A stretch of DNA of 35,307 nt from an uncultured Gammaproteobacteria bacterium (lineage in GTDB: Bacteria > Patescibacteriota > Patescibacteriia > UBA9934 > GWF2-40-263): the NCBI GenBank assembly GCA_964428465.1, contig CAYRYG010000001.1:1-35307 (forward strand), written 5' to 3'. This document shows positions 2 to 14,603 of this stretch, piece by piece. The stretch's first letter is position 1; every line of letters begins with the position of its first letter. A program made the translations under genes and the position numbers. The notes below the pieces were generated by a model, which was given only the letters and a program-made list of their open reading frames with translations, was not told the DNA's origin and did not search any database.

Positions 2-520
2 CTCGGCGGGCTCACCCACCCGAACCCGCGCGCCTGGATCGCGGCCTACGCGCTCGCCTGGTGCGTGCGCGACCGCCTGCAGCACGCGGACCGCGAGGAC
101 ATGATCGACCGCCTGGTCGAACACCTCGACGGCCTCGAGCCGTACCACGACGACCGCGTGGCCGACCGCCTCCGGCTCCTGCGGCACCCGGCCACGCTCG
201 CGTCCGCCGAGGCGCTGCGCGAGTCCGTCGGTACGAGCTGCTACGCCATCGAGTCCGTCCCCTTCGCGATCGGCTCCTTCCTGCGCCACCCCGCCGACAT
301 CCGGACGGGCGCGCTCGAGGTGCTGAACGCGGGCGGCGACACGGACACCAACGTCGGCATGTACGCGCAGCTCGCCGGCGCGGACCAGGGCGTCGACGCC
401 ATCCCCTGGGACTGGCGCGAGCAGATCCCCGACGCGCGCCAGGCGCTCGCCATCGGCACGGCGCTCGGGCGTATGGTGATCCACAACGGCTTCGCCTACC
501 TTCACGAGCACTTCGTCTGA
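2..520 (+). CDS. ADP-ribosylglycohydrolase family protein, C-terminal part (5' end outside window)
   Basis: Frame 2 is open from the window edge to TGA 518-520. The translation carries the ARH/DraG-type signature NAGGDTDTN followed by AIPWDW. The listed ORF 65..520 is only the Met-initiated portion. Confidence 0.8.
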   Translation, partial: LGGLTHPNPRAWIAAYALAWCVRDRLQHADREDMIDRLVEHLDGLEPYHDDRVADRLRLLRHPATLASAEALRESVGTSCYAIESVPFAIGSFLRHPADIRTGALEVLNAGGDTDTNVGMYAQLAGADQGVDAIPWDWREQIPDARQALAIGTALGRMVIHNGFAYLHEHFV

Positions 521-524
521 CCCT

Positions 525-580
525 GGGAAGCGCCCGCTTCCCTCTTTGCCCGGGACCCCCACGCGGTTGTGGGGAGTCCG
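525..580 (+). promoter_or_regulatory. intercistronic module IE1 (hairpin A - CTCTTTGCC box - hairpin B)
   Basis: GGGAAGCG-cc-CGCTTCCC (525-542), box 542-550, then GGACCCCCAC-gcggtt-GTGGGG(a)GTCC (553-579). Confidence 0.6.
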
Positions 581-614
581 GAAAAAGACAACGCCCTTTT
601 GACACGGAGATACG

Positions 615-1907
615 ATGGCCCTGATCGACGCCGGTCTCGTCAAGCTGACGACCGAGTGGATTCTCACGTCCCTCGCGGACGTGGACGTCTACAAGATCTA
701 CATGCTGCAGCTCTACTTCCTGAAGCACCGCGCGGTGCGCGGGAAGTACGGGTTCAAGAACCGCACCATCCGGGTGCCGCTCGGCAGGACGCTCGACATC
801 GAGGAGATCCGCCGCCAGCTCGAGCACGCGCGCGATCTGCGGTTCACGGACGAGGTCATCCGATTCCTCGAGCTCGTGAGCGCGCAGCGCGGCGGCCTCT
901 TCCGCCCCGAGTTCCTCGAGTTCCTTCGGACGCTCCAGCTCTCACCGATCCACGTTTCCCTCTCGGAAGACGGCTCCCAGCTCGTCATCGAGACCGAGGA
1001 GGCGCCGCTCGTCGAGGCGATGCTCTGGGAGACGCTCGTCATGAACGTCGTCAACCGGATGTACTTCCTCGACAAGATGCGCGAGGAAGGCAAGACGGAG
1101 GACGACGCCTGGGCCGAGGGCGACCGGCGGCTTACCGCGAAGATCGCGAAGCTCAGGGAAGCGCTCGCGCGCGGCGTCCGCGTCCCGTTCATCGACTTCG
1201 GCACGCGCCGCCGGTGGTCGCTGGCCTGGCAGGAACACGTGCTCCGTCGCCTCATGGCGGAGGTGCCCGAGATCCTCATGGGCACGAGCAACGTGCTGCT
1301 CGCGACGAAGCTGGGAATCCCCGTGGTCGGCACCATGGCGCACGAATGCGACATGGCCTACCAGGGCATCTACCGCGCCGAAGACGACGCGGCGGGCCGC
1401 CTCGTGTCGCACGAGATCATGCTCGATGACTGGGCCGAGATCTACGGCGACAGGCTGTCGATCGCGCTGTCCGACACCTACGGCAGCGAGTATTTCTTCC
1501 GGACGTTCGGCGCCGAGCGCGCGGCGTTCTGGAAGGGCCTGCGCCAGGACTCGGGCGACGTCTACGACTGGGGCGAGCGATTCATCCGCTTCTACCTGGA
1601 CTTCGACATCGACCCGCGCACCAAGTCCGCGGTGTTCTCCGACGGCCTGGACGTCGACAAGATGATCGGCCTCGCCGAGCGGTTCGGCGGGCGGACGAAC
1701 ATCCTGTTCGGCTGGGGTACCGACCTCATGAACGACATGGGGTTCGACCCGCTGTCGATCGTCGTGAAGCTGATCTGGTGCGCGGGACACTGGCTCGTGA
1801 AGCTCTCCGACAACCTGAAGAAGGCCACCGGCCCCGCGGAGGCGGTCGAGCGCGTCACGCGTCTCTCCGACTACACCAACACCGCGGCCGAAGAGTGCCG
1901 CGTCTGA
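615..1907 (+). CDS. pncB: nicotinate phosphoribosyltransferase (Preiss-Handler step 1)
   Basis: 430 aa with PncB-type motifs DFGTRRR, GTSN, GTMAHE, SDTYG, RQDSGD, GWGT and KLSDN..KATG. GGAG lies 5 nt before the ATG. Confidence 0.9.
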   Translation: MALIDAGLVKLTTEWILTSLADVDVYKIYMLQLYFLKHRAVRGKYGFKNRTIRVPLGRTLDIEEIRRQLEHARDLRFTDEVIRFLELVSAQRGGLFRPEFLEFLRTLQLSPIHVSLSEDGSQLVIETEEAPLVEAMLWETLVMNVVNRMYFLDKMREEGKTEDDAWAEGDRRLTAKIAKLREALARGVRVPFIDFGTRRRWSLAWQEHVLRRLMAEVPEILMGTSNVLLATKLGIPVVGTMAHECDMAYQGIYRAEDDAAGRLVSHEIMLDDWAEIYGDRLSIALSDTYGSEYFFRTFGAERAAFWKGLRQDSGDVYDWGERFIRFYLDFDIDPRTKSAVFSDGLDVDKMIGLAERFGGRTNILFGWGTDLMNDMGFDPLSIVVKLIWCAGHWLVKLSDNLKKATGPAEAVERVTRLSDYTNTAAEECRV

Positions 1908-1967
1908 CGAGAACGTCTCGTCTCTTTTCTCCAGGCCCCGAGCACATCGCGTGTTCGAGGCCTGGAG
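1906..1967 (+). promoter_or_regulatory. intercistronic module IE2
   Basis: GACGAGA-acg-TCTCGTC (1906-1922, overlapping the pncB stop), TCTTTTCTCC box, then a long hairpin CTCCAGGCC...GGCCTGGAG (1929-1967). Confidence 0.6.
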
Positions 1968-1988
1968 CCGAAGACTGGGAGAACGAAC

Positions 1989-3035
1989 GTGCCCCCTTCC
2001 AACATCCTCATCGCCGTCGACGCGCCGGACCCGGACAACTTCGCCCTGGTCGTCGCGCTCAAGCGGCTGTACCCGAACGCCAGGCTGTGGGTGATGCTGA
2101 CGGGACGCCCCGTCCGCTTCAACGCCTCGCCCGAGCACCAGCTCTGGGACTGGGACATTCGCGACTCGCGGATGGCGCTCGAGGCCTCCGCCGCGCGGCT
2201 CCGGAACTTCGTGCGCCACTACGGCGTCCGGATCCCGGAGGTGTACGACGGCGGGATCGCCCCGCGTACCCTCATCCCGCACCACGTCCACTTCGCGGAC
2301 TACTACCGCTACCTGGACGTCGACCCGCTCGCGGCCATCGCGCACAGCGAGCTGGTGCCGCAGGAGGACCTGGTGCGCGAGCTGCTCGCCGTCCCGGAGG
2401 GATCGGTGATGGTCGCCATCGGCGGCCCCATGACCGGCCTGGCGCAGCTCATCGCCCGCCACCCGGCCGTGGCGTCGCGCTTCCGCGAGGTGCACGCGAT
2501 GTTCGCCACCTGGGGGAAGGTCGAGCTCATGCAGTTCGACGGCCCGCCGCGCGGCGCCCTGCAGTTCAACGTCGCGTGCGACCCGCAGGCCGCGTACCAC
2601 GTGCTCATGGGGCTCGCCTGCCCCGTGTACTTGCTGCCGTCGGAGGTGACGCGCGTGCAGGGCATCGGGTTCCAGAACGCGCAGGCGCTGATGGGCGCGA
2701 TCGAAAGCACGCCTGGCAACCAGCGGCTGTACCTGCTCTACTGCGCGTGGTACGACGCCGCGGTCAAGCCGCGCCAGGACCGGAACCCGAACGAGCTCAT
2801 CTTCATCCACGACCTGTCGGCCGGCTTCTCCGCGGATCCCGCGATCCGCGCCGACGTGTACGACATGGTGCCGGTGGAGATCACCTCGGTTCCCCACCTC
2901 CCCGCCGAGGCGGCGGACTGGGGCAAGGTGCTGATGCGCGAGACCGCGTCGCCCGGCAACCGCTTCGCGGCGAAGGGCCTCGTTCCGGGCGGCGAGAGCG
3001 CGTACCTCCACCACCTCCGCGCGCTCGTGCGCTGA
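1989..3035 (+). CDS. inosine/uridine-preferring nucleoside hydrolase-like protein (divergent, paralog 1)
   Basis: GTG start preceded by GGGAGA. It has an N-terminal Asp cluster IAVDAPDPDNF, GGPMTGLAQLI (compare GPLTNLA) and FNVACDPQAA (compare EFNixxDPEAA). The usual DD is replaced by DN. Confidence 0.6.
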   Translation: MPPSNILIAVDAPDPDNFALVVALKRLYPNARLWVMLTGRPVRFNASPEHQLWDWDIRDSRMALEASAARLRNFVRHYGVRIPEVYDGGIAPRTLIPHHVHFADYYRYLDVDPLAAIAHSELVPQEDLVRELLAVPEGSVMVAIGGPMTGLAQLIARHPAVASRFREVHAMFATWGKVELMQFDGPPRGALQFNVACDPQAAYHVLMGLACPVYLLPSEVTRVQGIGFQNAQALMGAIESTPGNQRLYLLYCAWYDAAVKPRQDRNPNELIFIHDLSAGFSADPAIRADVYDMVPVEITSVPHLPAEAADWGKVLMRETASPGNRFAAKGLVPGGESAYLHHLRALVR

Positions 3036-3042
3036 ACATCCT

Positions 3043-3097
3043 GCGACCCGAGCGGTCGCCTCTTTCCCACGAACGACGAATCCATCGCCGTTCGTGG
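3043..3097 (+). promoter_or_regulatory. intercistronic module IE3
   Basis: GCGACC-cgagc-GGTCGC (3043-3059), CTCTTTCCC box, then CCACGAACG-13 nt-CGTTCGTGG (3067-3097), followed by AAGGAG. Confidence 0.6.
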
Positions 3098-3115
3098 CCA
3101 AGGAGATTGGCACTC

Positions 3116-4309
3116 ATGACCACGCTCTCTCTGCTCGTACCTTCCCCCGCCGCGGACCGGATCGCCGCCGCCATGCGCGACCTCCCGTCCCGACTCCGGT
3201 GGCCCGGAACCGTCGGCTTCGAGGACAACACCCAGACCCCCGAGACCGAGTCGATGGGCGCCAAGCTCGTCGTCGGCGGGTCCGAGTGGACCATCCGCTG
3301 CAACCGCGCGGACATCCTCGTCGGCACGACGTTCCGCGACGATCCGACCCTGTCGCTCGTCGCCGCCGTGGACGTGTCCTGGTCGCCCGCGCTCGACGCC
3401 GAGGCCGGCGCGCTCTACGCGGTGCCGGCCTTCCGCGGCATCGAGGTGGTCGACGGCCCCGGGTCGCTCGACGACCTCTGCGCCGCGGTCGGCTTCGGCC
3501 GGCGCAAGATCACCGATGTCCCCGCGCGCCCCGACCCGGTCGAGGTGAGCATCAACGGGACGCCCGTCCCGGTCGAGGCGGCCCCCGGCGTCACCCCCAA
3601 GCAGTTCGAGAAGGCGCTCGCCTCCCCGAAGTTCACCGACTGGGTGGCGTCCGTCGACCCCGGCCTCACGGTGAAGCGGGTCACCATCCAGTCGGTCGAC
3701 CTGTTCGGGCCGAACGTGGGGTTCCTGAAGATCGTCGCCGACGTGTCGAAGGACGGCGCGTTCGTCCCCGGCATCTCGTTCATCCGCGGCGACTCGGTGG
3801 GAATCCTGGTCGTGCTGGTCTGCGACGACCGCGAGTACCTGCTGCTCACCGTGCAGCCGCGCTCCTCCGTCGGCAGCTCCGGCTTCGTCGAGATCCCCGC
3901 GGGGATGATGGACGGCTCGGGCAACTTCGTGGGCCAGGCCGCCAAGGAGCTCGGCGAGGAGGCCGAGATCCGCATCACCGAGGGCGACCTCACGGACCTC
4001 TCCACCGCGATCGCGCGGACCGAGGAGGACTTCAACGCGCCCGTGAGCTACGCGCTCTCCCCGGGCGGCTGCGACGAGTGCATGCGGTTCTTCGTCCACC
4101 GCAGGAGCGTCACCCGCGCGGAGCTCGCCGCGCTCGAGGGCAAGGCCACCGGCCTGCTCGAGGAGGGCGAGGTCATCACGCTCAAGGTGGTCCCGCTCGA
4201 CGGCCGGATCCGCCGCATCCCCGACGGCAAGACCCAGATCGCCGTCGGGCTGTACCAGGAGATCCGCACCCTCGAGATGCTCGGGTCCCAGATCCTGACC
4301 ACGCACTGA
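3116..4309 (+). CDS. ADP-sugar/ADP-ribose pyrophosphatase (NUDX14-like Nudix domain) fused to an unknown ~165-aa N-terminal domain
   Basis: ATG 3116 follows AAGGAG (3100-3105). Residues ~165-397 resemble plant NUDX14-type enzymes (VDLFGPNVGFLKIVADV..., VEIPAGMMDGSGNFVGQAAKELGEEAEI). The upstream part of listed ORF 1778..4309 overlaps two other genes and is not coding. Confidence 0.75.
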   Translation: MTTLSLLVPSPAADRIAAAMRDLPSRLRWPGTVGFEDNTQTPETESMGAKLVVGGSEWTIRCNRADILVGTTFRDDPTLSLVAAVDVSWSPALDAEAGALYAVPAFRGIEVVDGPGSLDDLCAAVGFGRRKITDVPARPDPVEVSINGTPVPVEAAPGVTPKQFEKALASPKFTDWVASVDPGLTVKRVTIQSVDLFGPNVGFLKIVADVSKDGAFVPGISFIRGDSVGILVVLVCDDREYLLLTVQPRSSVGSSGFVEIPAGMMDGSGNFVGQAAKELGEEAEIRITEGDLTDLSTAIARTEEDFNAPVSYALSPGGCDECMRFFVHRRSVTRAELAALEGKATGLLEEGEVITLKVVPLDGRIRRIPDGKTQIAVGLYQEIRTLEMLGSQILTTH

Positions 4310-4324
4310 CGCACCTTTCACCTT

Positions 4325-4381
4325 GGCGACCCCATGGTCGCCTCTTTCTCCCGGCCGCCCTCGTCATGAGGACGTTCGGGA
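4325..4381 (+). promoter_or_regulatory. intercistronic module IE4
   Basis: GGCGACC-ccat-GGTCGCC (4325-4342), TCTTTCTCCC box, then an imperfect hairpin TCCCG...CGGGA (4349-4381). Confidence 0.55.
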
Positions 4382-4415
4382 CAGAAGAACGCAGCAACCT
4401 TCAAGGAGCCGCCCA

Positions 4416-5555
4416 ATGGCTCGCGTCATCCCTCCGTGGCTCGAGGTCATCCCCCTCGTCCGCTCGCTCCTCGTCATCATGGATCCCGGCCGGGACCAGG
4501 ACGACGAGGACACGCTGGTCGCCCTCAACCGCTTCGTGCGGATGGGCCTCATGGACGTGCTCGGCGTGGTGGCGAACCTCGCGCCGTCCGCCAACCGCGC
4601 GCGCCTGGCCCGCGGTACGCTCGACACGCTCGGCCTGCCCGAGATCCCGGTCGGCATCGGCACGGGCTGCACGCAGCCCGACGACGACGGCATGGCCTAC
4701 CAGTGGGCCGTCAGCTACCTGTCCCCCGAGGACGCGGTGGTGGACGGCAAGACCCTTCTGCGTCGCACCCTCGAGGGCGCGCAGCCTGGGCAGATCGTGC
4801 TCGTGCTGCTCTCCGGGCTCACCGACGCCTACGAGATCATGCGCGAGGAGCCGGCGCTGTTCGCGTCGCGCGTCCGCCGCGTGGTGTTCATGGGCGGCGT
4901 CGAGGCGAGCGGCGACAGCGTGAAGGTGTACAAGGACGGCCGGTTCCGCCCGGACCCGACCGCCCAGAACGTGAAGTTCGACACCGACTCCGCGGGCGTG
5001 CTGTACAAGCAGCTCCAGCTCATGGGCATCCCCATGACGATCCTCACCCGCCACGCCGCCGCGGCCGCCAAGGTGCCGCGCGCCATCTACGACGAGATGG
5101 CCGACACCGGGCACCCGGTCGGCGTCCGGCTGCGCGAGGCGCAGAAGACGGCCATCGAGGAGCTCTGGCGCCGCGCCAACCTCCCGGACGGCCACGCGGA
5201 CCGCATGGGCCTGCCGGGCCGGTGCAACGCCGCCTGGTTCCGCGGGGCGTTCCTCGGCGGCCAGGGCGACGACCGCGGCGCGGACGACGGCATCTGGGAC
5301 CTCGTGCAGACGTTCATGCTGTACGACCCCATGACGCTATTCGCCGCCGTTCCGTCGCTGCGCGAGTACTTCTTCGAGCCCGAGGTGATCGAGGTGTGCG
5401 ACGCGAACGGCCACCCGGTCGAGCACCTGGTCATCGGCGTCTCCGCCGCGCGCCACGGCGTCTCGCATCCCGAGGAGCTCGCCTCGTACCTCACGAAGGC
5501 GCTCGTCGAGAGCCTCCAGATGTCGATCGCCGAGCCGGAGCGCCAGCGCGCCTGA
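4416..5555 (+). CDS. inosine/uridine-preferring nucleoside hydrolase-like protein (divergent, paralog 2)
   Basis: ATG 4416 follows AAGGAG. It has an N-terminal VIMDPGRDQDDED Asp cluster (DxDxGxDD-like), LSGLTDAYEI...VVFMGG and NVKFDTDSAG, which together resemble the IUNH fold. Confidence 0.6.
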   Translation: MARVIPPWLEVIPLVRSLLVIMDPGRDQDDEDTLVALNRFVRMGLMDVLGVVANLAPSANRARLARGTLDTLGLPEIPVGIGTGCTQPDDDGMAYQWAVSYLSPEDAVVDGKTLLRRTLEGAQPGQIVLVLLSGLTDAYEIMREEPALFASRVRRVVFMGGVEASGDSVKVYKDGRFRPDPTAQNVKFDTDSAGVLYKQLQLMGIPMTILTRHAAAAAKVPRAIYDEMADTGHPVGVRLREAQKTAIEELWRRANLPDGHADRMGLPGRCNAAWFRGAFLGGQGDDRGADDGIWDLVQTFMLYDPMTLFAAVPSLREYFFEPEVIEVCDANGHPVEHLVIGVSAARHGVSHPEELASYLTKALVESLQMSIAEPERQRA

Positions 5556-5568
5556 CCGTACCTTCCCT

Positions 5569-5630
5569 GTGATCCTTCGGGATCACTCTTTCCTCGAGAA
5601 CCGGACCGAGCCGTTCGGTCGGGTCCTCGA
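5569..5630 (+). promoter_or_regulatory. intercistronic module IE5
   Basis: GTGATCC-ttcg-GGATCAC (5569-5586), exact TCTTTCCTCGAG (5587-5598), then a long imperfect hairpin TCGAG...CTCGA (5594-5630). Confidence 0.6.
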
Positions 5631-5644
5631 TGGGAGAAGCCAGC

Positions 5645-5890
5645 ATGGCCGACAACTACGTTTTGGACAGCGACGGCTGCGGGACGCACTGCGACGACTG
5701 CGGCCATCCGGTGTGCCAGTGCGGTCGCATCGCCAGAAGCCAGCTGTTCGTCCAGCACTACGTGCTCGACTCCGACGGCTGCGGGTCCACCTGCGCCACC
5801 TGCGGCAAGGCCTGGACCGTCTGCTCCTGCCCGCACGCCGCGGACACGCGCCGCGGGCTCCTGGAGGAACTCGCCTCAACTGGGACGTAA
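5645..5890 (+). CDS. 81-aa Cys-rich mini-protein with an internal tandem duplication (YVLDSDGCGxxCxxCG...CxC, two copies)
   Basis: ATG 5645 follows GGGAGA. Ten Cys fall in two 22-24 aa repeats offset by 34 aa, each containing C-x3-C-x2-C. The gene sits in the same regular spacing and intercistronic module pattern as its neighbours. Confidence 0.6.
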   Translation: MADNYVLDSDGCGTHCDDCGHPVCQCGRIARSQLFVQHYVLDSDGCGSTCATCGKAWTVCSCPHAADTRRGLLEELASTGT

Positions 5891-5937
5891 CCGAGCGTCC
5901 CCTCTTTCCCCAAGCCGCCGAGACCTCTCCGCGGCTT
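5882..5937 (+). promoter_or_regulatory. intercistronic module IE6
   Basis: GGGACG-8 nt loop containing the TAA stop-CGTCCC (5882-5901), CTCTTTCCCC box, then AAGCCGC-12 nt-GCGGCTT (5912-5937). Confidence 0.6.
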
Positions 5938-5968
5938 AGGACGAAGACACCACACATCGGGGAGCAAG

Positions 5969-7135
5969 ATGCTCTTAGCACTCACGGCGTCCACCCAGGG
6001 CAAGAACCTCTTCGTGGACGGGATTCCTGGCCGCGGCACGGTCCAGGTGACCGAGGCGGAAATCGCCGCCGGGCTGTTCCTCGACAAGGAGCGGATCTTG
6101 CGCGTCGTTGCGCGGATCGACGGCCGCTCAACGGTCATCGAGGTCGTGGACGCGGACGGTGACACGCTCGCTCGCGCCCAGTCGCGCGGAAGGCGCGCCA
6201 CGCTCTCGTTCCGCCTGCCCAAGGCAACGGCCCTCGGCGACGCCGAGAAGGACCTCCTGCGCCAGCACGGCCGCGTGTACCGCGACGGCGACGCCACGGT
6301 CGTCGAGGTCATGGGCAAGGCCTGGCTCCTCAACGAGCCCGGCGTGACCTGCGCGAACCCGACCGCGCCGGAGCCGGACCGCGTCTACCGGAAGGTCTTC
6401 GCCAAGAAGAAGATCTACCTCCCGGACGAGTACGACCGCGCGGTCGCGGAGTGCCTGTCCGGCCGGGACGTGTTCGTCCTCGGCATGAACGGGTACAGCG
6501 CCATCAAGCCCGAGAAGTGCCGTGAGTACGGCATCGACCCGGGCGCGTACGAGATCGCGTGCGAGGAGCTGCTGGAGTTCGCCATCAGGTCGCTTCGGAC
6601 GGCGTTCCCGGACATCAGCGTCCGGGTGATCCACGGCTCGTCCGCGATGGGCGTGGACCTGGCGATCCAGCGCTGCGCGAGGCGGGTGCTGCGCGACAGC
6701 GAGCTGGGGTTCTCCTGCCCCGAGTACCTGTTCTACGTCCAGGACGACTCGTACCCCGTGTACGTCGCATCCAGCGTCCACGACTACTCGCAGTCGTTCG
6801 TGCGCTCGTGCAACGTGCTCATCGCGGCGAACGGTCGGCTCCAGGCCTTCCGCATGGACATCGCCGCCGTGTTCGAGCACGACAAGTACCTCATCCCGGT
6901 GAACGTGATCAAGCTGATCTCGCGCACCGGTTCCCCGGCGGCCAAGAACGCGCTGGGGCAGATCGAGGACGCGGTCGCGCACTACGAGCAGCGGGTGTTC
7001 CAGGTCGGCAAGCAGGTGACCGAGGGTACCGCGGCCGACCGCTGGAAGGCGACCGGCTCGGAGGTGCGCGACGTGCTCGTCAACATCGCCCGCCACGTCC
7101 TTCCCAAGGAGATCTCCTGGAAGCTCGGCGCCTAG
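5969..7135 (+). CDS. hypothetical protein; C-terminal half possibly a DprA/SLOG-like Rossmann nucleotide-binding fold
   Basis: 388 aa, ATG after GGGGAG. The motifs VFVLGMNGYS, VIHGSSAMGVDLAIQRCA and VLIAANGRLQAF resemble DprA/YpsA-type GxxxxG(I/V)DxxAxxxA plus a later strand-Gly motif. I do not recognise the N-terminal ~170 aa. Confidence 0.65.
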   Translation: MLLALTASTQGKNLFVDGIPGRGTVQVTEAEIAAGLFLDKERILRVVARIDGRSTVIEVVDADGDTLARAQSRGRRATLSFRLPKATALGDAEKDLLRQHGRVYRDGDATVVEVMGKAWLLNEPGVTCANPTAPEPDRVYRKVFAKKKIYLPDEYDRAVAECLSGRDVFVLGMNGYSAIKPEKCREYGIDPGAYEIACEELLEFAIRSLRTAFPDISVRVIHGSSAMGVDLAIQRCARRVLRDSELGFSCPEYLFYVQDDSYPVYVASSVHDYSQSFVRSCNVLIAANGRLQAFRMDIAAVFEHDKYLIPVNVIKLISRTGSPAAKNALGQIEDAVAHYEQRVFQVGKQVTEGTAADRWKATGSEVRDVLVNIARHVLPKEISWKLGA

Positions 7136-7148
7136 CCCGGCTCCCCGT

Positions 7149-7204
7149 CGTGTCCGCCCGGACACGGCCTCTTTCCTCGAGCCGCCGAATCGTCGGCGTC
7201 TCGA
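7149..7204 (+). promoter_or_regulatory. intercistronic module IE7
   Basis: CGTGTCC-gccc-GGACACG (7149-7166), exact TCTTTCCTCGAG (7170-7181), then TCGAG-c-CGCCGA-atcg-TCGGCG-t-CTCGA (7177-7204). Confidence 0.6.
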
Positions 7205-7225
7205 TCCAAGGAGCTCGAACCTTTC

Positions 7226-8182
7226 ATGCCGACGGATCCCAGAATCAGCCACGGCGGCGGGCAGATGCGCGCGCAGTCGTTCTCCGTGCAGGTCTCGACC
7301 CGCACGCGCTGCAACGCCGGGTGCCAGTTCTGCATCTCGCGGACCACGCCCGGCACCGAGACCCCGGACAGCCCGGGCGCGCTGCGGTTCTGCGACGAGG
7401 CACGCCTGCGCGTCGGGCTCAACTATGCCCGCGCGCTCGGCGCCACACACGCCATCCTGACCGGCAAGGCGGACCCCACGCAGGAGGATTCCCTGTACCT
7501 TACCCGGCTCATCGACACCGCCCGCGAGTACCTGCCGCTGTGCGACATGCACACCAACGGCTTCCTGCTCCAGCCCGGCAAGATGCGCGAGAACCTGCTC
7601 GCGGAGCTCGTGGCCGCGGGACTCACCATGGTGACGTTCTCGGTCGCGAGCTTCGATCCGGGTGAGAACCGCACGCTCATGGGGATCAGGCAGGACCCGC
7701 GCGCGCTCATCGCGCAGGCTTGCGACCTCGGCCTGCTCGTCCGCTGCTCGCTCGTCATGAACGAGCGCGGCGTGCGCGACGTGGCCGGCGTGCTCGACTA
7801 CGTGAAGACCGCCGGCGAGCTCGGCGCGCACATGGTGGTCGTCCGCGAGGTGTGGAGGCCCAAGGTGTACGGCGTCTGGAACAAGGACGTCTTCGACTGG
7901 AACCACGCCAACGCCATTCCCCTTCCGCCGATCCAGGACGCCATCCTCGCGATCGCGTCCGAGGGCGGCAACCCGCGGGGCCTGCAGGTGCTCGATCCCC
8001 TTCCGTGGGGAACGCCGGTGCTCGGCATGGGCGGGGTGTTCCGCGACCCGTCCCACGGGGTGAACCTCACCTTCGCGCTGTGCGAGGAGGCGACGGTCGG
8101 CGCGGTGCTCAAGTCCGTGGTGCACATGCCCGACGGGCACGGCTACCGCAACTGGAACCACAAGGCCGAGATCCTCTACTAG
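7226..8182 (+). CDS. radical SAM enzyme, single [4Fe-4S] motif, no SPASM/twitch Cys cluster
   Basis: CNAGCQFC (C-x3-C-x2-C) at nt 7310-7333, in a MoaA/PqqE-like context (RTRCNAGCQFC, ILTGKADPT, HTNGFLL, TFSVASFDP). The start is uncertain: ATG 7226 lies 12 nt after AAGGAG, and ATG 7265 is an alternative. Confidence 0.85.
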   Translation: MPTDPRISHGGGQMRAQSFSVQVSTRTRCNAGCQFCISRTTPGTETPDSPGALRFCDEARLRVGLNYARALGATHAILTGKADPTQEDSLYLTRLIDTAREYLPLCDMHTNGFLLQPGKMRENLLAELVAAGLTMVTFSVASFDPGENRTLMGIRQDPRALIAQACDLGLLVRCSLVMNERGVRDVAGVLDYVKTAGELGAHMVVVREVWRPKVYGVWNKDVFDWNHANAIPLPPIQDAILAIASEGGNPRGLQVLDPLPWGTPVLGMGGVFRDPSHGVNLTFALCEEATVGAVLKSVVHMPDGHGYRNWNHKAEILY

Positions 8183-8239
8183 GGAGACCGTCTCCCTTCT
8201 TTCCTCGAGCCCTTGAACACATCACGTGTTCGAGGCCTC
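8182..8239 (+). promoter_or_regulatory. intercistronic module IE8
   Basis: GGGAGA-ccg-TCTCCC (8182-8196, abutting the TAG stop), exact TCTTTCCTCGAG (8198-8209), then a hairpin around GAACAC-atcac-GTGTTC (8207-8239). It shares a 21-nt core with IE2. Confidence 0.6.
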
Positions 8240-8277
8240 AAGACAAAGAACCGCTCATTCTTCATCGGAGTCATCCC

Positions 8278-10455
8278 ATGTACGCTCCCCGCGTGTTCGC
8301 CCTCGACCGCAAGACGCACGGCTTCGTCCGCGTCGGCACGATCGTGCCGAAGGTCATCCCGCAGGCCATCGACTACAACGTCGGCCAGATGGTCGCGATG
8401 GCAAGGGACGCCGCCGCGAAGGGCGTCCAGGTGGCCTTGTTCCCGGAACTCGGGATCACGGGCTACTCGTGCCGCGACGCGTTCCACGACCTCGCGTTCA
8501 TCGACAACGCGCGGCTCGGCCTGCTCCGCTTCGTCGAGGAGACGAAGGGGCTCGGGACCGTATTCTTCGTCGGCCTGCCGTTCCCGGTCAACGGGACGCT
8601 CTACAACGTGGCGGCGGTCGTCAACCGCGGGAAGATCCTCGGGTTCGTCCCGAAGTCCTTCATCCCGACGTACGGCCCGCACGAGGAACGCCGCTGGTTC
8701 GCCTGCGCCGACCACCTGAACGTGGGCATGGTCCGGCTCCAGGGCCACGATGGCGAGATCCCGATGGGAACCAACATCCTCGTGGACGTCGAGAGCGACA
8801 CGGACGCGTCGATCATCACGGTCGGCGTGGAAATCTGCGAGGACGGCTGGCACCGCCGGAGCCCCTCGGGGCTGCAGGCGGCCAACGGCGCGCTGCTGTG
8901 CGTCAATCTGTCGGCGTCCCCGTGGATCGTCGGCAAGGACGAGTACCGCCACATGATCTTCGGGGCCCTCTCCGGCGACATCATCGGGGCGTACGCATAC
9001 TGCGCGTGCGGCCACGGCGAATCCACGGACGACGTGGTGGTGGACGGCGACGCGTTCGTCGCCCAGAACGGGTCGATCCTGGCCTCCTCGGAGCGCTGGA
9101 ACCGGCACGGCCAGATCGTCATCGCGGACATCGACGCCGAGTCGCTCATGCGCGAGCGCTGGGTGACCGGCACGTTCGCCGAGGTGGCCGCGACCAACCG
9201 GGCCGCGTACCGCCACGTGGTGGCGCACGTCGCCGAGCTCAAGCTCGAGTCGAAGTCGGCCTACGCGCCGCCCCAGCTCGAGCTGATCGATGGCGGGCAA
9301 AGCGCCCACCTGAAGTTCACGGCCCCGAGCGGCGGCAACCGCGCCCTGCGCCGCGCCGTCACGCGCAAGCCCTTCGTCCCCCGCGACCCGGAGACGATGG
9401 ACAAGCGCTGCCGCGACATCATCTCGGGCGTCGGCCAGGGCCTCATGGTGAGGCTCGAGTCCATGGCCCGCTCGCAGCTCGTGCGCGAGGGCAAGAACCC
9501 GTACGTCGAGGCGCTCCCGCCGCAGCACGTCTACTACGGCCACTCCGGCGGCCGCGACTCGACGTTCGTCGGCGAGGTGATCCTCTGGGTGTACGACCAG
9601 CTCGGCTGGGACAGGAAGTTCATCCACGCCGTGCGCATGCCCGGCCCGGCCTCCTCCGACTCGACGCAGGACCTGTCGCTGCGCCGCTGCACCCTGGCGG
9701 GCGTGGACGTCATCACCAACCCGATCGAGGACCACACCGCGCGGCTGCTGCGTTCCGAGGGCCACGAGCCGTGTTGGAACAACCCCGACCCGGCGAAGCG
9801 CCGGTGCGGGCGGTGCCAGAATGCCCAGGCCCGCGTCCGCACGCTCATCCTGATGACGTACGGGTTCGTGGTCGGCACCGGCGATCTCACCGAGATCATG
9901 ACCGGTTGGTGCACGTACAACGGCGACCACATGTCGATGTACAACCCGAACGCGGGCGTGCCGAAGACGCTGGTCGAGCACCTCATCCGCTGGATCGCCA
10001 TGAACTGGCGGACCGGCGAGGAGCGGCAGGTGCTGCTCGAGATCCTGGCGGAGATCGTCTCCCCCGAGCTCGTGAAGGCGCTGCCCGGCGAGGCGATCCA
10101 ATCGACGGAGGACGAGGACGGTCCGATCCAGCTCAAGGACTTCTTCATCTACTGGTTCCGCCGCCACGGCGCGAGCCCGACGAAGATCGCCTACCTCGCG
10201 GAGATTGCCTTCGCGCAGGTCGAGGACGAGGGCGACGAGACCTACGACCGCGCCACGATCCTGAAGTGGCTGCGCCGGTTCTTCGCCAAGTTCCAGGAGG
10301 CGCAATTCAAGCGCAACGCCGCCCCGTCCGGCCCGCTCATGGGCTCGGTCGGCGCGTCGCAGCGCGGCAACCTGCGCTGGCACTCCGACGCCGACATCGG
10401 CGCCTGGATCGCCGAGATCGACCGCCTCATCGCCGACCTCGCGCGCGCCGCCTGA
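8278..10455 (+). CDS. nadE: glutamine-dependent NAD+ synthetase (CN-hydrolase domain + NAD synthase domain)
   Basis: 725 aa. The nitrilase-type E/K/C context is present (LFPELGITGY, VPKSFIP, GVEICEDGW). The ATP-PPase P-loop is YYGHSGGRDST, followed by NAQARVRTLILM. ATG 8278 follows GGAG. Confidence 0.9.
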   Translation: MYAPRVFALDRKTHGFVRVGTIVPKVIPQAIDYNVGQMVAMARDAAAKGVQVALFPELGITGYSCRDAFHDLAFIDNARLGLLRFVEETKGLGTVFFVGLPFPVNGTLYNVAAVVNRGKILGFVPKSFIPTYGPHEERRWFACADHLNVGMVRLQGHDGEIPMGTNILVDVESDTDASIITVGVEICEDGWHRRSPSGLQAANGALLCVNLSASPWIVGKDEYRHMIFGALSGDIIGAYAYCACGHGESTDDVVVDGDAFVAQNGSILASSERWNRHGQIVIADIDAESLMRERWVTGTFAEVAATNRAAYRHVVAHVAELKLESKSAYAPPQLELIDGGQSAHLKFTAPSGGNRALRRAVTRKPFVPRDPETMDKRCRDIISGVGQGLMVRLESMARSQLVREGKNPYVEALPPQHVYYGHSGGRDSTFVGEVILWVYDQLGWDRKFIHAVRMPGPASSDSTQDLSLRRCTLAGVDVITNPIEDHTARLLRSEGHEPCWNNPDPAKRRCGRCQNAQARVRTLILMTYGFVVGTGDLTEIMTGWCTYNGDHMSMYNPNAGVPKTLVEHLIRWIAMNWRTGEERQVLLEILAEIVSPELVKALPGEAIQSTEDEDGPIQLKDFFIYWFRRHGASPTKIAYLAEIAFAQVEDEGDETYDRATILKWLRRFFAKFQEAQFKRNAAPSGPLMGSVGASQRGNLRWHSDADIGAWIAEIDRLIADLARAA

Positions 10456-10522: not shown

Positions 10523-10551
10523 TTGACAATCCGTCTCGCGCGTGATACACA
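10523..10551 (+). promoter_or_regulatory. sigma70-type promoter of the CPBP gene
   Basis: TTGACA - 17 nt - TACACA, with a TGn extended -10. Confidence 0.55.
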
Positions 10552-10582
10552 TTCCCTCCGTCAGCCACAAGGAGGCCGTGAC

Positions 10583-11284
10583 GTGACCGCAACTTCCAAA
10601 CAGCGCAACTACCTCTGGGCGAGCTTCACCTCGCTGATCATGATCGGGATCGTGAAGCACTTCTGGCCCGACCTCATCCCATTCGGCTTCTGGGACCTGT
10701 GGAAGGCCCCGCATGGCGTGTGGGCGGGAGTGCTGGCCGGATGGCCCATCCTCGCCTGGGGCGGGTTCCACTTCCTGCGCACCTGGATCTTCGTCGACGA
10801 GAACCACTACGCGCTCGCCTACGCCAACGCGTGGGACACCTTCGTCAACGGGCTGAAGATCAGCGCCTGGGCCGGGATCACCGAGGAGATCGCCTTCCGC
10901 TGGCTCATCTTCCTCGGGGCCATGCCGTCGCTCGTGCTCGGCAACTTCCTGTTCTTCGGCTGCCTCGGATTCGGCTTCGCGGAGTGGTTCCACCTCCACG
11001 TGTGGGGCGCGCTCGCGAACTGGACGACGTTCGGCATCCTCGAGCCGCAGATCTTCGACCCGCGGATGTGGTACGTCGGAGCCGCCCTGCTGTACTCGAA
11101 CGCGTTCTTCCGGGAAGGCCACGCCTACCAGGGGATCATCGGGATCATCAACTCGTGGTTCCTCGGCATGGGGTTCTTCTACCTCACCTTCAACTACGGC
11201 CTCGGCTCGGCGATCATCGTGCACTTCCTGTACGACGTGCTGATCTTCTCCGGCATGGCCGCGGCCATCGCCAAGCGGTCCTGA
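10583..11284 (+). CDS. CPBP family intramembrane glutamic endopeptidase (CAAX protease/Abi-like)
   Basis: GTG 10583 lies 7 nt after AAGGAGG. The protein is multi-TM and has the three CPBP motifs: EEIAFR, FREGH (FxxxH) and HFLYD (HxxxD). Confidence 0.8.
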   Translation: MTATSKQRNYLWASFTSLIMIGIVKHFWPDLIPFGFWDLWKAPHGVWAGVLAGWPILAWGGFHFLRTWIFVDENHYALAYANAWDTFVNGLKISAWAGITEEIAFRWLIFLGAMPSLVLGNFLFFGCLGFGFAEWFHLHVWGALANWTTFGILEPQIFDPRMWYVGAALLYSNAFFREGHAYQGIIGIINSWFLGMGFFYLTFNYGLGSAIIVHFLYDVLIFSGMAAAIAKRS

Positions 11285-11365: not shown

Positions 11366-12508
11366 CTACGTCGCGACGAGCGCGGCGATCTCGTCGGCCT
11401 TCCGCTGGCGCCACGCGGCGGCGGCCTCGCGGATCTTTCCCGCGGACCACGAGCCGATGTGGGTTCGCGGCGGCCTGGCCCCCCGCGCCTCGCCCTCGTA
11501 CGGCGCGTCCATGGGCTTGGCTTCCACGAGGGCGACGGCCGCGAGGATCCGCGGCGTGACCGGGACGCCCGGAAGCGACAGCGCGTAGAGGACGTTCTGG
11601 GTGAGGTGCTCGCAGATGAACGTCCCGCCCCAGCGCTCGAGATACTCCGCGAGCGCGTCGAGGACGCGCGGGTCGTCGGGCCAGGCCCTGGCGATCCGCA
11701 GCGCCTCGTCGTACGCGGACGCGCGGTCCGTGAACACGGTGAGGAAGTCCGCGAGGAAGTGCTCGCCGATCGCCGCCCGGATCCGCGCGGCGAGCGCCGG
11801 GTTCCCGTACCCTTCCTCGCCGAACGGTCCGGACAGGTGCTGGATGAGCGCTGTGCGGTACCGGCACTCGGCATGGTTCGAAGACTTGAACTCGGACTCG
11901 CACTGGGCGTCGTCGACGCGGAACGTCACCGCGCGCCGGATCTCCGCCTGGAGCTCCGGCCCGCACTGCGCGATGCCGACCACGAGCGCGAACGCCGCGA
12001 GCGCCTTGGGGACGGTGTCCGGATACGTTCCCTTGTGGTTCCCGCCGACGGGACGCTGGACGTAGGGGGCGCGGTAGGCGGCGAGCAGGAACTCGGCGTG
12101 GTTCGGCAGGTTGTCCGCGATGGCCAGGATGGCCGCGTCGCGGACGCGCGAGTGGGGCGCGACGGCGTTGTCCCAGAGAAGCGCGAACGCGCGCTCGTCG
12201 GGCAGGAAGCGCCCGAGCGCGCGGGCCGAGGCTTCGCGCTGGGCCTGATCGCAGCAGTCGACGATGGCGAACGGGAGGAACCCCGCGCCCGCCTTCTCAT
12301 CGTCGTCCAACGCGTCTATGCGCCCCTTGACCGCGGCGATGAGCCGGCGGCTGAGCGGGTGCTCGCTGCGCGCGACCCCGACCAGCTCGGCGATGAGCAC
12401 GTCACGGATCTCGGCCCGCTCCACAAGCGGCGCGAGGATCTGGTCGGCCTCCGCGGCCGACAACTTCTCGACGAAAAAGACCTCGGGAATGAGCGGTTCG
12501 ACGGACAT
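11366..12508 (-). CDS. hypothetical protein (helical, no family recognised)
   Basis: 380 aa. ATG 12508 lies 4 nt after GGAGG. It has its own promoter (12560-12588) and terminator (11330-11361). Confidence 0.7.
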   Translation of the reverse strand: MSVEPLIPEVFFVEKLSAAEADQILAPLVERAEIRDVLIAELVGVARSEHPLSRRLIAAVKGRIDALDDDEKAGAGFLPFAIVDCCDQAQREASARALGRFLPDERAFALLWDNAVAPHSRVRDAAILAIADNLPNHAEFLLAAYRAPYVQRPVGGNHKGTYPDTVPKALAAFALVVGIAQCGPELQAEIRRAVTFRVDDAQCESEFKSSNHAECRYRTALIQHLSGPFGEEGYGNPALAARIRAAIGEHFLADFLTVFTDRASAYDEALRIARAWPDDPRVLDALAEYLERWGGTFICEHLTQNVLYALSLPGVPVTPRILAAVALVEAKPMDAPYEGEARGARPPRTHIGSWSAGKIREAAAAWRQRKADEIAALVAT

Positions 12509-12559
12509 CCGTCCTCCGTTTCCATGACCCCGGGACATCCGGTGCGTCAGGGAGAGCCA

Positions 12560-12588
12560 ACGGTATCAAAAAATGGCCGTTTTGTCAA
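12560..12588 (-). promoter_or_regulatory. sigma70-type promoter of gene 11366..12508
   Basis: Reverse strand reads ATTGACAAAAC ... TGaTACCGT with a 17-nt spacer. It is divergent from, and back to back with, the 12593 promoter. Confidence 0.5.
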
Positions 12589-12592
12589 TCGC

Positions 12593-12621
12593 TTGACGCA
12601 TCCGCCAAATGTCGCTATGAT
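12593..12621 (+). promoter_or_regulatory. sigma70-type promoter (ABC exporter/GNAT operon)
   Basis: TTGACG - 17 nt - TATGAT. Confidence 0.65.
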
Positions 12622-12632
12622 GGGTTTCTTAA

Positions 12633-12755
12633 ATGATCCCTATGTCCAACTTCACCGCCAAAATCATGGACATCCAGTATCCGGCCTTCCAGGCCTGGGT
12701 TGATGGTTCGCGCTGCGCGCGGATGGGCTTTTCGCTGATTTCGACGACGGCATAA
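12633..12755 (+). CDS. possible leaderless 40-codon upstream ORF (MIPMSNFTAKIMDIQYPAFQAWVDGSRCARMGFSLISTTA)
   Basis: The ATG lies 11 nt after the TATGAT -10 box of a near-consensus promoter. The stop codon sits in a small hairpin followed by the GTTTCCCTCGAG box and a second hairpin. There is no homology support. Confidence 0.25.
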   Translation: MIPMSNFTAKIMDIQYPAFQAWVDGSRCARMGFSLISTTA

Positions 12756-12808
12756 CGCCGGTTTCCCTCGAGACCAGACCAAAGCCCGGCCGCAGTGAGC
12801 CGGGCTTT
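12748..12808 (+). promoter_or_regulatory. IE-like module in the ABC exporter leader
   Basis: A weak 4-bp hairpin CGGC-ataac-GCCG with TAA in the loop, GTTTCCCTCGAG box (12761-12772), then a perfect 10-bp hairpin AAAGCCCGGC-8 nt-GCCGGGCTTT (12781-12808), followed by GGAGG and TTG 12828. Confidence 0.4.
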
Positions 12809-12827
12809 CCAAACCACGGAGGACAGG

Positions 12828-14603
12828 TTGTTCCTTTCATTCGTCACGGACTTTCGGACGCTCATCCGTCCGTTCATCCCCGAGATCCGCCGCGCGGCGG
12901 GATGGGTGGTGCTGCTTCAGGTGCTCGCGATGGTCGAGCCGTTCCTCGTCATGCAGGTGGTCACCCTGGTCCTGGAGGACCAGGCGAACGCGGCCTCCCT
13001 GCTGCTCCCGCTGTGCGGGTTCATGTTCGTCGCGCTGGTGCTCATCGGGTTCGCGAACGTCGCGAAGAACCGGTTCATCCGCGCGGCGTGGCTCAAGATC
13101 GACCACGACCTCCCGCTTCTGGGCGGCGGAAAGCTGCTCTCGCTCCCGTACGTCTACCACCAGACGGAAAACACCGGCCTGGTGGTCGGCAAGATGGTGC
13201 GTGGCGTGTACCGCACCGGCGAGATCGTCGGAATCTTCCTCTTCGAGGTGTTCCCGCTGCTCGTGCAGACGCTGGTGACGACGGCGATGCTCGCGTACTA
13301 TCGCCCGGTCGCGGCCGCGATCTTCGTCCCGGTGTTCCTGACGTTCATCGCGCTCACCGCCTGGGTGAAGCTGAAGTGGGCGAGGCACCGCATGGGCCGG
13401 CACGCGCAGGTCACGGCGGCCGACGAGCTGCTCGGCCAGGCCGTGATGAACGTGATGACGACCCAGGCGTTCGCGCAGGAGGAGCGCGAGATGCGCGGGA
13501 TCCGCGCGGTGCGCGACCGCATCGACGCGCTCGCCGACCCGGAGTTCCGCGCGTACGACGCGAACGACCTCGTGCGCAACGCGCTGGTGTCGTTCGGCCG
13601 CGTGAGCGTGGTGTACCTGTGCGCGTCGGCCGTGCTGTCGGGCGCCTTCTCCGTCGCGCTGCTCATGTTCGTGGTGACGCTCGCGGAAAAGGTGTTCATC
13701 AACTGCTACCGCATCGGCGCCATCTTCGACCGCGCGATGGAGGCGGTGGACGCCGTGCGCGAGATCAACCAGATCCTCGCGGAGCCGGACACGGTTCCCG
13801 ACCCGGCCGAACCCGTCGCGGTGCCGCGCCGCCTCACGGGCACGATCCGCCTCGAGGGGGTCGACTACGCGTACCGCGCCAAGCGCGACGGGCGCGAGCA
13901 TCGCTCAAGCCACCTGGCGCTCCGGGGCATCGACCTGGATCTCCCGGCCGGTAAGGTGGTGGCCATCGTGGGCGAGTCCGGCAGCGGGAAGAGCACGCTC
14001 GCGAAGCTGCTCATCCGCTGCGACGACCCGACCGCCGGGCGCATCACGATGGACGGCACCGACCTGAGGCGCATGCGCAAGGGCGACCTGCGCCGCCAGT
14101 TCGGCTACGTGCTGCAGGAGGTGCAGATCTACGACCTCACGGTCGCGGAGAACATCGCCTACGGCCGCCCGGACGCCACGCGCGAGGACATCGAGCGCGC
14201 GGCAAAGATCGCCAACGCGCACGACTTCATCCTGCAGCTCGAGGACGGCTACGAGACCAAGGTCGGCGACCGCGGGCTCAAGCTCTCGGGCGGCCAGCGT
14301 CAGCGCGTCGGCATCGCGCGCGCCTGGCTCGTGGACCCGCCCGTGCTCATCCTCGACGAGGCCACCTCCAACGTGGACGTCGAGAGCGAGCTGAAGATCC
14401 AGCAGGCCATGGAGCGCCTGCGCCACGGCCGCTCGATGGTAGTCATCGCGCACCGTCTCTCGACCGTGCGCAACGCGGACATCATCGTGGTGCTGCACGA
14501 CGGCCGCATCCAGGAGATCGGCACGCACGCCGAGCTCTTGCGCGAAAACGGCATCTACCACCGGCTCGTGGACATCCAAAGCCGCGAAGCCGCCGTCGCC
14601 TAG
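12828..14603 (+). CDS. ABC transporter, fused permease/ATP-binding (MsbA-like exporter)
   Basis: Six-TM N-terminal half, Walker A GESGSGKST, signature LSGGQRQR, Walker B LILDEATS. I prefer TTG 12828 (5 nt after GGAGG) to the listed GTG 12795, which lies inside a stem-loop. Confidence 0.9.
   Translation: MFLSFVTDFRTLIRPFIPEIRRAAGWVVLLQVLAMVEPFLVMQVVTLVLEDQANAASLLLPLCGFMFVALVLIGFANVAKNRFIRAAWLKIDHDLPLLGGGKLLSLPYVYHQTENTGLVVGKMVRGVYRTGEIVGIFLFEVFPLLVQTLVTTAMLAYYRPVAAAIFVPVFLTFIALTAWVKLKWARHRMGRHAQVTAADELLGQAVMNVMTTQAFAQEEREMRGIRAVRDRIDALADPEFRAYDANDLVRNALVSFGRVSVVYLCASAVLSGAFSVALLMFVVTLAEKVFINCYRIGAIFDRAMEAVDAVREINQILAEPDTVPDPAEPVAVPRRLTGTIRLEGVDYAYRAKRDGREHRSSHLALRGIDLDLPAGKVVAIVGESGSGKSTLAKLLIRCDDPTAGRITMDGTDLRRMRKGDLRRQFGYVLQEVQIYDLTVAENIAYGRPDATREDIERAAKIANAHDFILQLEDGYETKVGDRGLKLSGGQRQRVGIARAWLVDPPVLILDEATSNVDVESELKIQQAMERLRHGRSMVVIAHRLSTVRNADIIVVLHDGRIQEIGTHAELLRENGIYHRLVDIQSREAAVA

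Follow-up and report, generated by a model that had tools for sequence, protein, structure and literature searches.

The question raised by this locus is what role might be played by an 81-residue protein with ten cysteine residues, designated Cys81 here, whose gene lies in a putative operon together with genes for an ADP-ribosylglycohydrolase, an NAPRTase, two nucleoside hydrolases, a Nudix-domain protein, a 388-residue protein, a radical SAM enzyme, and an NAD synthetase. The operon is located in a stretch of 35,307 nucleotides that was analysed as a whole (the window), and the sequencing runs containing this DNA are groundwater metagenomes. The genome has a size of 1.25 Mb (0.6–1.6 Mb in relatives) and a G+C content of 65%, and homologs of the neighbouring genes carry names from Candidatus Uhrbacteria, Parcubacteria, Komeilibacteria, and similar groups, which suggests an organism of the Patescibacteria type. 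A sequence-only reading of the window had placed Cys81 two positions upstream of the radical SAM gene, which agrees with the order Cys81, 388-residue protein, radical SAM enzyme, and it had offered three roles: a small metal- or Fe-S-binding partner or electron donor for the radical SAM enzyme, a precursor or scaffold peptide modified by that enzyme, and a zinc-ribbon-like regulator. In the following, these options are weighed against the reading frame, the distribution, and the genomic context of Cys81.

The Cys81 gene and its internal repeat

The open reading frame with ten Cys codons that had been proposed at 5645–5890 was recovered by translation, and the encoded protein opens with MADNYVLDSDGCGTHCDDCGHPVCQC and later contains YVLDSDGCGSTCATCGKAWTVCSC. 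Its proposed start at position 5645 was also retained, as it follows a Shine-Dalgarno-like GGGAGAAG and coincides with the start of the ortholog in genome G007 (same genus), which is itself preceded by GGAGGA; an alternative start, ATG 5630, has no counterpart in this ortholog and was rejected. The G+C content at third codon positions (GC3) amounts to 0.90 in frame versus 0.57–0.60 in both shifted frames and is similar to that of ten neighbouring genes (0.91–0.98). Judged by GC3, start site, conservation, and the existence of a third allele (see below), Cys81 looks like a genuine protein-coding gene. The features of the locus are compiled in Table 1.

Table 1 Features of the Cys81 locus, in window coordinates
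Feature	Position	Strand	Remarks
ADP-ribosylglycohydrolase, C-terminal part	window start		
NAPRTase	615–1907		
Inosine-uridine-type nucleoside hydrolase (NH1)	1989–3035		
Nudix-domain protein	3116–4309		
XopQ-like nucleoside hydrolase	4323–5555	+	Pfam IU_nuc_hydro, 3.9e-09; adjoins Cys81 upstream in both carrier genomes
Upstream junction module	5569–5630	+	Hairpin GTGATCC..GGATCAC, CTCTTTCC box (5586–5593), second hairpin; conserved in G007
Shine-Dalgarno-like GGGAGAAG	5632–5639	+	5 nt before Cys81 ATG; GGAGGA at the equivalent place in G007
Cys81	5645–5890	+	81 codons and TAA stop; 10 Cys; from translation
Repeat 1, residues 5–26	5657–5722	+	YVLDSDGCGTHCDDCGHPVCQC; Cys 12, 16, 19, 24, 26, all invariant in three sequences
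Linker, residues 27–38	5723–5758	+	28–37 (RIARSQLFVQ) invariant in three sequences; low-confidence AF2 helix 33–38
Repeat 2, residues 39–62	5759–5830	+	YVLDSDGCGSTCATCGKAWTVCSC; Cys 46, 50, 53, 60, 62
C-terminal tail, residues 63–81	5831–5887	+	PHAADT invariant, then variable stretch; helix predicted at low confidence
Downstream junction module	5902–5940	+	CTCTTTCC box (5902–5909) and hairpin, before the 388-residue protein gene
388-residue protein	5969–7135	+	No Pfam family; downstream of Cys81 in the window, not in G007
Radical SAM enzyme	7226–8182	+	318 residues; single CxxxCxxC motif
Glutamine-dependent NAD synthetase (NadE)	8278–10455		

The tandem duplication noticed in the sequence-only reading, in which residues 5–26 align to residues 39–62 with an offset of 34 residues, is strongly borne out by self-alignment: its local BLOSUM62 score of 82 was reached by none of 5000 shuffles of the whole protein (maximum 48) and by none of 5000 shuffles in which the Cys positions were held fixed (maximum 64), and the repeat is detectable at the DNA level, too. 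Also as described before, each repeat carries C-x3-C-x2-C-G followed by C-x-C, with a gap of four residues (x4) between them in the first repeat and of six (x6) in the second. The knuckle strings read C16-D-D-C19-G and C50-A-T-C53-G, the latter continuing with K-A-W-T-V. The fifth Cys of each unit is located three residues before the CxxCG knuckle. Cysteine makes up 12% of the residues. The AF2 model of the protein, calculated from a two-sequence alignment, has a pLDDT of 44.3 and a pTM of 0.25, values too low for the identification of a fold.

Distribution, orthologs, and selection

Cys81 is an orphan with a very narrow distribution. A word-indexed search of 5.8 billion proteins, which gave 89 candidates, led to two Cys81 proteins or clusters, namely Cys81 itself and the G007 ortholog (P0002), and a six-frame profile search of the 162 genomes of the order found it in two, G000 and G007, which are also the only carriers among the nine genomes of the genus (a count that includes G000). 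An exhaustive HMMER scan of 1.84 billion representatives, run without a length window, returned Cys81 itself and the 904-residue protein P0003 (E 1.4e-4), and no fused forms were detectable among these representatives; P0003 was rejected as a homolog, its printed sequence reading as a multi-C2H2 zinc-finger protein and the match being compositional. A second weak match within the genome itself, C41 (E 0.0089), turned out to be an Arg/Cys-rich off-frame translation lying over other open reading frames.

The family searches gave a concordant picture. No Pfam family was assigned to Cys81 at E≤0.01 or to P0001 and P0002 at E≤10, no NCBIfam family at E≤0.01, and no family in PHROGs or PADLOC, and Cys81 was not found in a scan of viral contigs. 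The best matches of a profile search against the PDB were not significant (1x6e, a C2H2 finger, E 0.17; 2nb9, a 49-residue uncharacterised protein, E 0.2), and the look-alikes in the ESM Atlas scored at most 0.87, with recognition below the mark, and are leads at best. Full-text literature searches yielded no paper on Cys81 or on its type of operon; in PMC9503650, there was no occurrence of cysteine-rich, Zn-ribbon, XopQ, nucleoside hydrolase, or NadE.

The G007 ortholog also has 81 codons and aligns without any indel, with 77% amino acid identity and all ten Cys residues kept, whereas the spacers flanking the gene carry indels between the window and G007. This identity falls inside the span of the neighbouring gene products (59–82%), for which the values versus G007 are 82% for the XopQ-like hydrolase, 82% for NAPRTase, 75% for NH1, 74% for a 253-residue membrane protein, and 59–71% for the Nudix-domain protein. 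Within the frame, 53 of 246 nucleotides differ, 26 of them at third positions; of the 34 codons that differ, 15 carry synonymous changes (binomial p = 0.024 versus a neutral share of 0.27), and dN/dS (NG86) is 0.32. A third allele, P0077, comes from another groundwater metagenome study and encodes an intact 81-residue protein with 93% identity to Cys81; its contig (11,950 bases) covers window positions 5300–6300 with 43 differences and no gaps. P0077 retains all Cys residues, H15, H64, residues 28–37 (RIARSQLFVQ), and PHAADT. Across the three sequences, 62 of 81 positions are invariant, including all ten Cys; H64 is unpaired, and H38 is replaced by Q in G007.

The comparison with P0077 bears on the idea that Cys81 might be a young, effectively neutral or non-functional frame which happens to be open in three close relatives. 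Among the differences listed, at least six codons are replaced (D17G, P22S, K55E, A56T, E75D, A77V) and at least one is silent, five further differences being left unclassified; on this short branch, the differences listed show no purifying selection at non-Cys positions, and the excess of replacements, like the presence of the gene in only 2 of the 162 genomes, is what a neutral frame could be expected to show. The wider comparison speaks against it, as all Cys and 62 of the 81 positions stayed invariant despite the 53 nucleotide differences and the dN/dS of 0.32, and as the GC3 fits the frame, indels are confined to the spacers, and a ribosome-binding site is present. We regard a neutral frame as improbable. 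In Cys81, constraint is apparent for the Cys framework and the linker, whereas none is seen at the loop positions. The invariance of linker and tail is more in keeping with a defined fold or an interaction surface than with a floppy thiolate cluster.

The operon and the radical SAM enzyme

At all operon junctions, a CTCTTTCC-like box is flanked by two hairpins, and the exact CTCTTTCC box occurs five times versus an expectation of 0.89. Since such a junction module lies on each side of Cys81, the operon appears to handle the gene as a cistron of its own. A specific link between Cys81 and the modules, with Cys81 acting as an RNA-binding zinc knuckle, was considered and dropped, as similar boxes are found at the junctions in G004, G005, and the loci L039, L040, and L041, all of which are devoid of Cys81. 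An ABC exporter is encoded 7 kb downstream.

In G007, the operon is distributed over two contigs and comprises genes for a relative of the 388-residue protein (32–34% identical), which heads the operon on the other contig, NAPRTase, an unidentified gene product, NH1, the Nudix-domain protein, the XopQ-like hydrolase, Cys81, a different NadE (32%), and the 253-residue membrane protein. The latter shows a weak Rce1/CPBP-like similarity (E 0.58) and co-occurs with Cys81 in G000 and G007 only; this association was discounted, as the two genomes are closest relatives and a terminator-like site splits the membrane protein gene from the operon. The sole positional constant of Cys81 is the XopQ-like hydrolase gene just upstream, which was found in two of two carrier genomes, these being kin and hence not independent. 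Because Cys81 is always encoded immediately after it, this hydrolase is the first candidate for an interaction partner. Its NCBIfam XopQ score of 162 bits lies below the cut-off of 500 bits, and the protein was therefore not assigned to XopQ. At locus L041, a hydrolase with 64% identity is not followed by a Cys81-like gene. A complex prediction for Cys81 (3-row alignment) and the hydrolase (5-row alignment) with two Zn ions scored 0.00 versus a mark of 0.32, an outcome that argues neither way on binding.

The radical SAM enzyme is the neighbour on which two of the earlier options depend, and the co-occurrence with Cys81 that these imply did not hold. Within the nine genomes of the genus, the enzyme is present in three (G000, G004, G005) and Cys81 in two, and the two genes are shared only in G000. 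No homolog of the window radical SAM enzyme was found in G007 at E≤0.001, either in the operon or elsewhere in this 96%-complete genome. Conversely, three operons contain the enzyme and are without Cys81: in G004, the XopQ-like hydrolase gene (39%) is separated from the radical SAM gene (56–57%) by a 137-bp spacer; in G005, genes for NAPRTase, the hydrolase, a small Nudix protein, and a histidine-phosphatase-like protein precede those for the radical SAM enzyme (68%) and NadE; and at the metagenome locus L039, the order is NH1, 388-residue protein (69%), a 362-residue protein, a 144-residue open reading frame, radical SAM enzyme (65%), and NadE. By family size, 149 radical SAM clusters (E≤1e-5) stand against two for Cys81.

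A tblastn survey of 20 related loci beyond the window found Cys81 in one, that of G007 (1/1), as opposed to none of 12 genome loci of the 388-residue protein family, none of three further loci of the genus or family, and none of four metagenome loci. In five genomes with loci of the 388-residue protein family, a six-frame search of the whole genome for Cys81 gave a best E value of only 0.099, and the small Cys-rich frames beside relatives of this protein at the G007 locus and the 12 genome loci were off-frame noise only. The sequence-only reading had named beforehand the absence of the frame from otherwise syntenic loci as an outcome that would speak against its proposals, and most related loci indeed proved to be without it. 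This absence points to Cys81 as a lineage-specific add-on rather than a core part of the system. In the genomes and loci compared here, the distribution of Cys81 is independent of that of the radical SAM enzyme.

A role as a ribosomally made precursor or scaffold peptide, with Cys residues modified by the radical SAM enzyme as in sactipeptide, ranthipeptide, or SCIFF systems, is disfavoured by this decoupling and by the unequal cluster numbers, and the properties of both proteins speak in the same direction. In a 30-sequence alignment of the radical SAM family, full invariance is confined to C29, C33, and C36, the isolated C56 and C286 being nearly invariant, and no SPASM/twitch or auxiliary-cluster motif was present; the 318-residue enzyme also has no extra N-terminal recognition domain. 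Cys81 shows no split into leader and core, its linker and both cores being equally conserved, and no NCBIfam model was matched by it at E≤0.01, the library being one that we take to include the SCIFF precursor model. The AF2 model of the enzyme (pLDDT 89.9, one domain) has MoaA as its nearest full-length fold (TMq 0.64–0.65), followed by viperin-like CTP enzymes (TMq 0.58–0.62) and the RiPP maturases SkfB and SuiB (TMq 0.59). The presence of these maturases among the structural neighbours, the vicinity of a small Cys-rich frame to a radical SAM gene, and the ABC exporter could be cited for a precursor, which we nevertheless consider highly improbable. Taken by itself, the predicted fold does not discriminate between nucleotides and peptides as substrates, but in combination with the missing SPASM and recognition parts and the NAD context, it makes a small-molecule substrate more likely. 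As Cys81 does not seem to be a required partner or substrate, the search for the substrate of the enzyme is best directed at nucleotides or NAD-derived metabolites.

The second option tied to the enzyme is a small Fe-S protein, in which the two Cys triads would each be completed by a Cys of the CxC pair to hold two [4Fe-4S] or [2Fe-2S] clusters with pseudo-twofold symmetry and which would deliver electrons to the radical SAM enzyme or another redox step. C-x3-C-x2-C is the [4Fe-4S]-binding spacing of radical SAM enzymes, and it recurs here in two symmetrical halves with ten invariant Cys residues, the second half ending in C-P like ferredoxin motifs; moreover, a radical SAM enzyme, which needs a reductant, is encoded two genes downstream in the window. 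Against an electron donor dedicated to this enzyme stand G007, which has Cys81 alone, and G004, G005, L039, and the 149 radical SAM clusters, which manage without Cys81. Hydrolases, phosphoribosyltransferases, and amidotransferases/synthetases, the families to which the remaining enzymes of the operon belong, require no electron donor, and neither Fer4 nor any other Fe-S family was matched at E≤10. Taken together, an Fe-S protein appears unlikely, but it is the main rival of the zinc-based reading given below and deserves more credit than a precursor peptide.

Proposed metal binding and comparison with known families

The remaining option of the sequence-only reading, zinc-ribbon-like metal binding, is the most plausible of the three as judged from the motifs. 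According to the mechanism that we propose, the gene would have originated very recently and within the genus, when a segment of about 34 codons was duplicated in tandem; each of the resulting units has five invariant Cys residues and, after these, a short helix-prone segment. Each unit would fold around a metal ion, most likely a structural zinc, which is bound by the CxxCG knuckle and the CxC pair. CxxCG is the classical knuckle of rubredoxins and zinc ribbons, and the CxC, positioned 4–6 residues past the knuckle, could provide two more ligands. The weak zinc-finger matches of Cys81 can be traced to the CxxCG knuckle together with K-A-W-T-V, which occurs as in the second strand of a zinc ribbon. 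Two features count against a canonical zinc ribbon, namely the presence of five rather than four Cys residues per repeat and of a single CxxC pair. Cys81 would act as a small accessory or adaptor subunit rather than as an enzyme, and it would function independently of the radical SAM enzyme. For this statement as a whole, a two-module, zinc-stabilised adaptor or accessory protein of a variable operon for NAD/ADP-ribose salvage, we see about an even chance.

Two further readings keep the metal and change the role. A metallothionein-like buffer or chaperone, in which ten thiolates would hold Zn(II) or Cu(I) in clusters of several ions and which would not be specifically tied to the NAD genes, is suggested by the CxC and CxxC motifs, the small size, the lack of a hydrophobic core signal, and the low-confidence fold prediction. 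The modest share of Cys, the strict conservation of RIARSQLFVQ (28–37) and PHAADT, indicative of a defined fold or interface, the absence of any Pfam family at E≤10, and the fixed place of the gene inside the operon argue the other way and leave such a buffer doubtful. Comparably speculative is the boldest version, according to which (C-x3-C-x2-C...C-x-C)x2 would be a new metal-cluster mini-fold and the product of this newborn, genus-restricted, duplicated gene would be a metal or redox subunit with the dedicated task of switching the XopQ-like hydrolase or the salvage operon in ultra-small groundwater bacteria.

If Cys81 is a zinc-stabilised or otherwise metal-binding accessory protein, its gene would cleanly illustrate how a very young gene can arise by internal duplication and become fixed within a metabolic operon, here in a probably symbiotic bacterium with a reduced genome, and the protein would define a new small Cys-rich family. 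The practical reach of this family is small, since its carriers amount to no more than two species and a single strain variant.

Among the known small Cys-rich proteins, several groups share single traits with Cys81. Like the di-cluster [4Fe-4S] ferredoxins (55–80 residues), it has two symmetrical Cys-rich halves and a final Cys that is followed by Pro, and its N-terminal 'YV.D.D.C' context presumably resembles ferredoxin starts; unlike these ferredoxins, in which CxxCxxCxxxCP occurs twice, its spacing is C-x3-C-x2-C-x4/6-C-x-C in both halves, and no Fer4-type Pfam profile was matched by P0001 or P0002 at E≤10. With the SCIFF, ranthipeptide, and sactipeptide precursors, Cys81 shares the nature of a small Cys-rich frame near a radical SAM gene, but it differs from them in having no SPASM partner, no co-occurrence with the enzyme, and no match to a precursor model. 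Bacterial metallothioneins, with their very high Cys content and few conserved non-Cys residues, differ from Cys81, in which Cys accounts for 12% of the residues and is interspersed with long invariant non-Cys stretches, and for which no Pfam match was obtained at E≤10. The C2H2 zinc fingers have a CxxCGKAF string that is resembled by the CxxCGKAW of Cys81, a likeness to which the weak, compositional matches to ZNF24, OSR2, ZBTB17, and P0003 are attributed; unlike C2H2 fingers (C-x2-4-C-x12-H-x3-5-H), neither CxxC of Cys81 is followed by paired His residues.

The closest correspondence is that with mini-proteins carrying zinc-ribbon or rubredoxin-type knuckles, e.g., of the MJ0042 type. Like these, Cys81 is small, has its modules in tandem, and contains a CxxCG with an aromatic residue and a β-strand-like segment after it (CATCGKAWTV), and the weak match to 2nb9 (E 0.2) points in the same direction. 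Where a zinc ribbon has two CxxC(G) knuckles per module, which together provide four ligands, a module of Cys81 has one (C16-C19 or C50-C53, respectively) with CxC as the second pair and a fifth Cys three residues ahead, and no significant profile was obtained. Cys81 is probably best viewed as a new sequence family of very small size that falls within a known kind, the Cys-rich metal-binding mini-proteins, and, going by its motifs, it would work most like a zinc-knuckle mini-protein.

Gene content of the salvage operon

Judged from the translated sequences, the gene content of the NAD/ADP-ribose salvage operon is modular across relatives. In the loci L033 and L034 of two same-genus genomes (G004 and G005, respectively) and in the metagenome locus L039, operon genes of the window are replaced or joined by genes whose products resemble a PRPP synthetase or a histidine phosphatase and by a gene for a conserved 362-369-aa protein with a GTGGGND motif. 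The window itself starts within a gene for an ADP-ribosylglycohydrolase, located directly upstream of the NAPRTase gene, so that the run of genes has ADP-ribose, and not NAD alone, at its centre.

Coordinates of the features discussed
Feature	Sequence	Position	Basis
ADP-ribosylglycohydrolase, C-terminal part	window	2-520	Pfam, E 3.9e-23
388-aa protein	window	5969-7135	
Radical SAM enzyme	window	7226-8182	
253-aa membrane protein	window	10523-11284	
Junction modules	window	about 1906-1988, 3036-3115, 5556-5644, 5891-5968, 7136-7225, 8183-8277	
Differing operon genes	L033 (G004)	8291-9232, 12033-13142	translations read
Differing operon genes	L034 (G005)	7855-8637	translations read
Differing operon genes	L039	1799-2887	translations read

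Junction modules and the 253-aa membrane protein

At every operon junction (window 521-8277), the ribosome-binding site is preceded by two hairpins with a CTCTTTCC-like pyrimidine box between them. The exact CTCTTTCC box occurs five times (0.89 expected), and similar boxes are also located at junctions of the related operons in G004, G005, a further same-genus genome (G007) and metagenome loci. In a simple terminator scan, the operon junctions score as weak terminators. In this region, the two sites that most clearly resemble a terminator flank the gene for the 253-aa membrane protein, which is found in the same genomes as the duplicated mini-protein Cys81, i.e. the window's own genome (G000) and G007. 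The membrane protein contains EExxxR, FxxxH and HxxxD-like motifs, and in Pfam it shows only weak similarity, to Rce1/CPBP (E 0.58).

The radical SAM enzyme and its variant in run X6

The radical SAM family comprises 149 clusters (E<=1e-5), and the homologs with an organism name are from Patescibacteria groups; the salvage operons of G004, G005 and L039 also hold such a gene. The enzyme possesses one CxxxCxxC motif and no auxiliary-cluster cysteines, and its structural model (pLDDT 89.9) is MoaA/viperin-like. Candidate substrates are nucleotides and metabolites derived from NAD. A strain-variant contig of 11,950 bases from the groundwater metagenome run X6 covers window 5300-6300, with 96% identity for the 388-aa protein and 93% for Cys81; the radical SAM protein from a contig of equal length is only 73% identical to that of the window. 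P0005, P0077 (the Cys81 allele) and P0080 were placed on one contig on the basis of this equal length. If they do share it, these values would fit a radical SAM gene that has recombined or been replaced inside the operon.

The 388-aa protein

The 388-aa protein matched no Pfam family and has no sequence relative in the PDB. Its homologs (73 proteins found, about 300 aa; Uhrbacteria, Parcubacteria, Obscuribacterales and others) are often encoded next to NAPRTase, NadE, Nudix or XopQ-like hydrolase genes, and an N-terminal extension, formed by the first approximately 95 residues, is present only in the closest relatives. The conserved motifs are MNGYS, HGAS.MGVD, LGFSCP and LIAANGR.QA, which appear to resemble those of a SLOG/LOG-type Rossmann fold.
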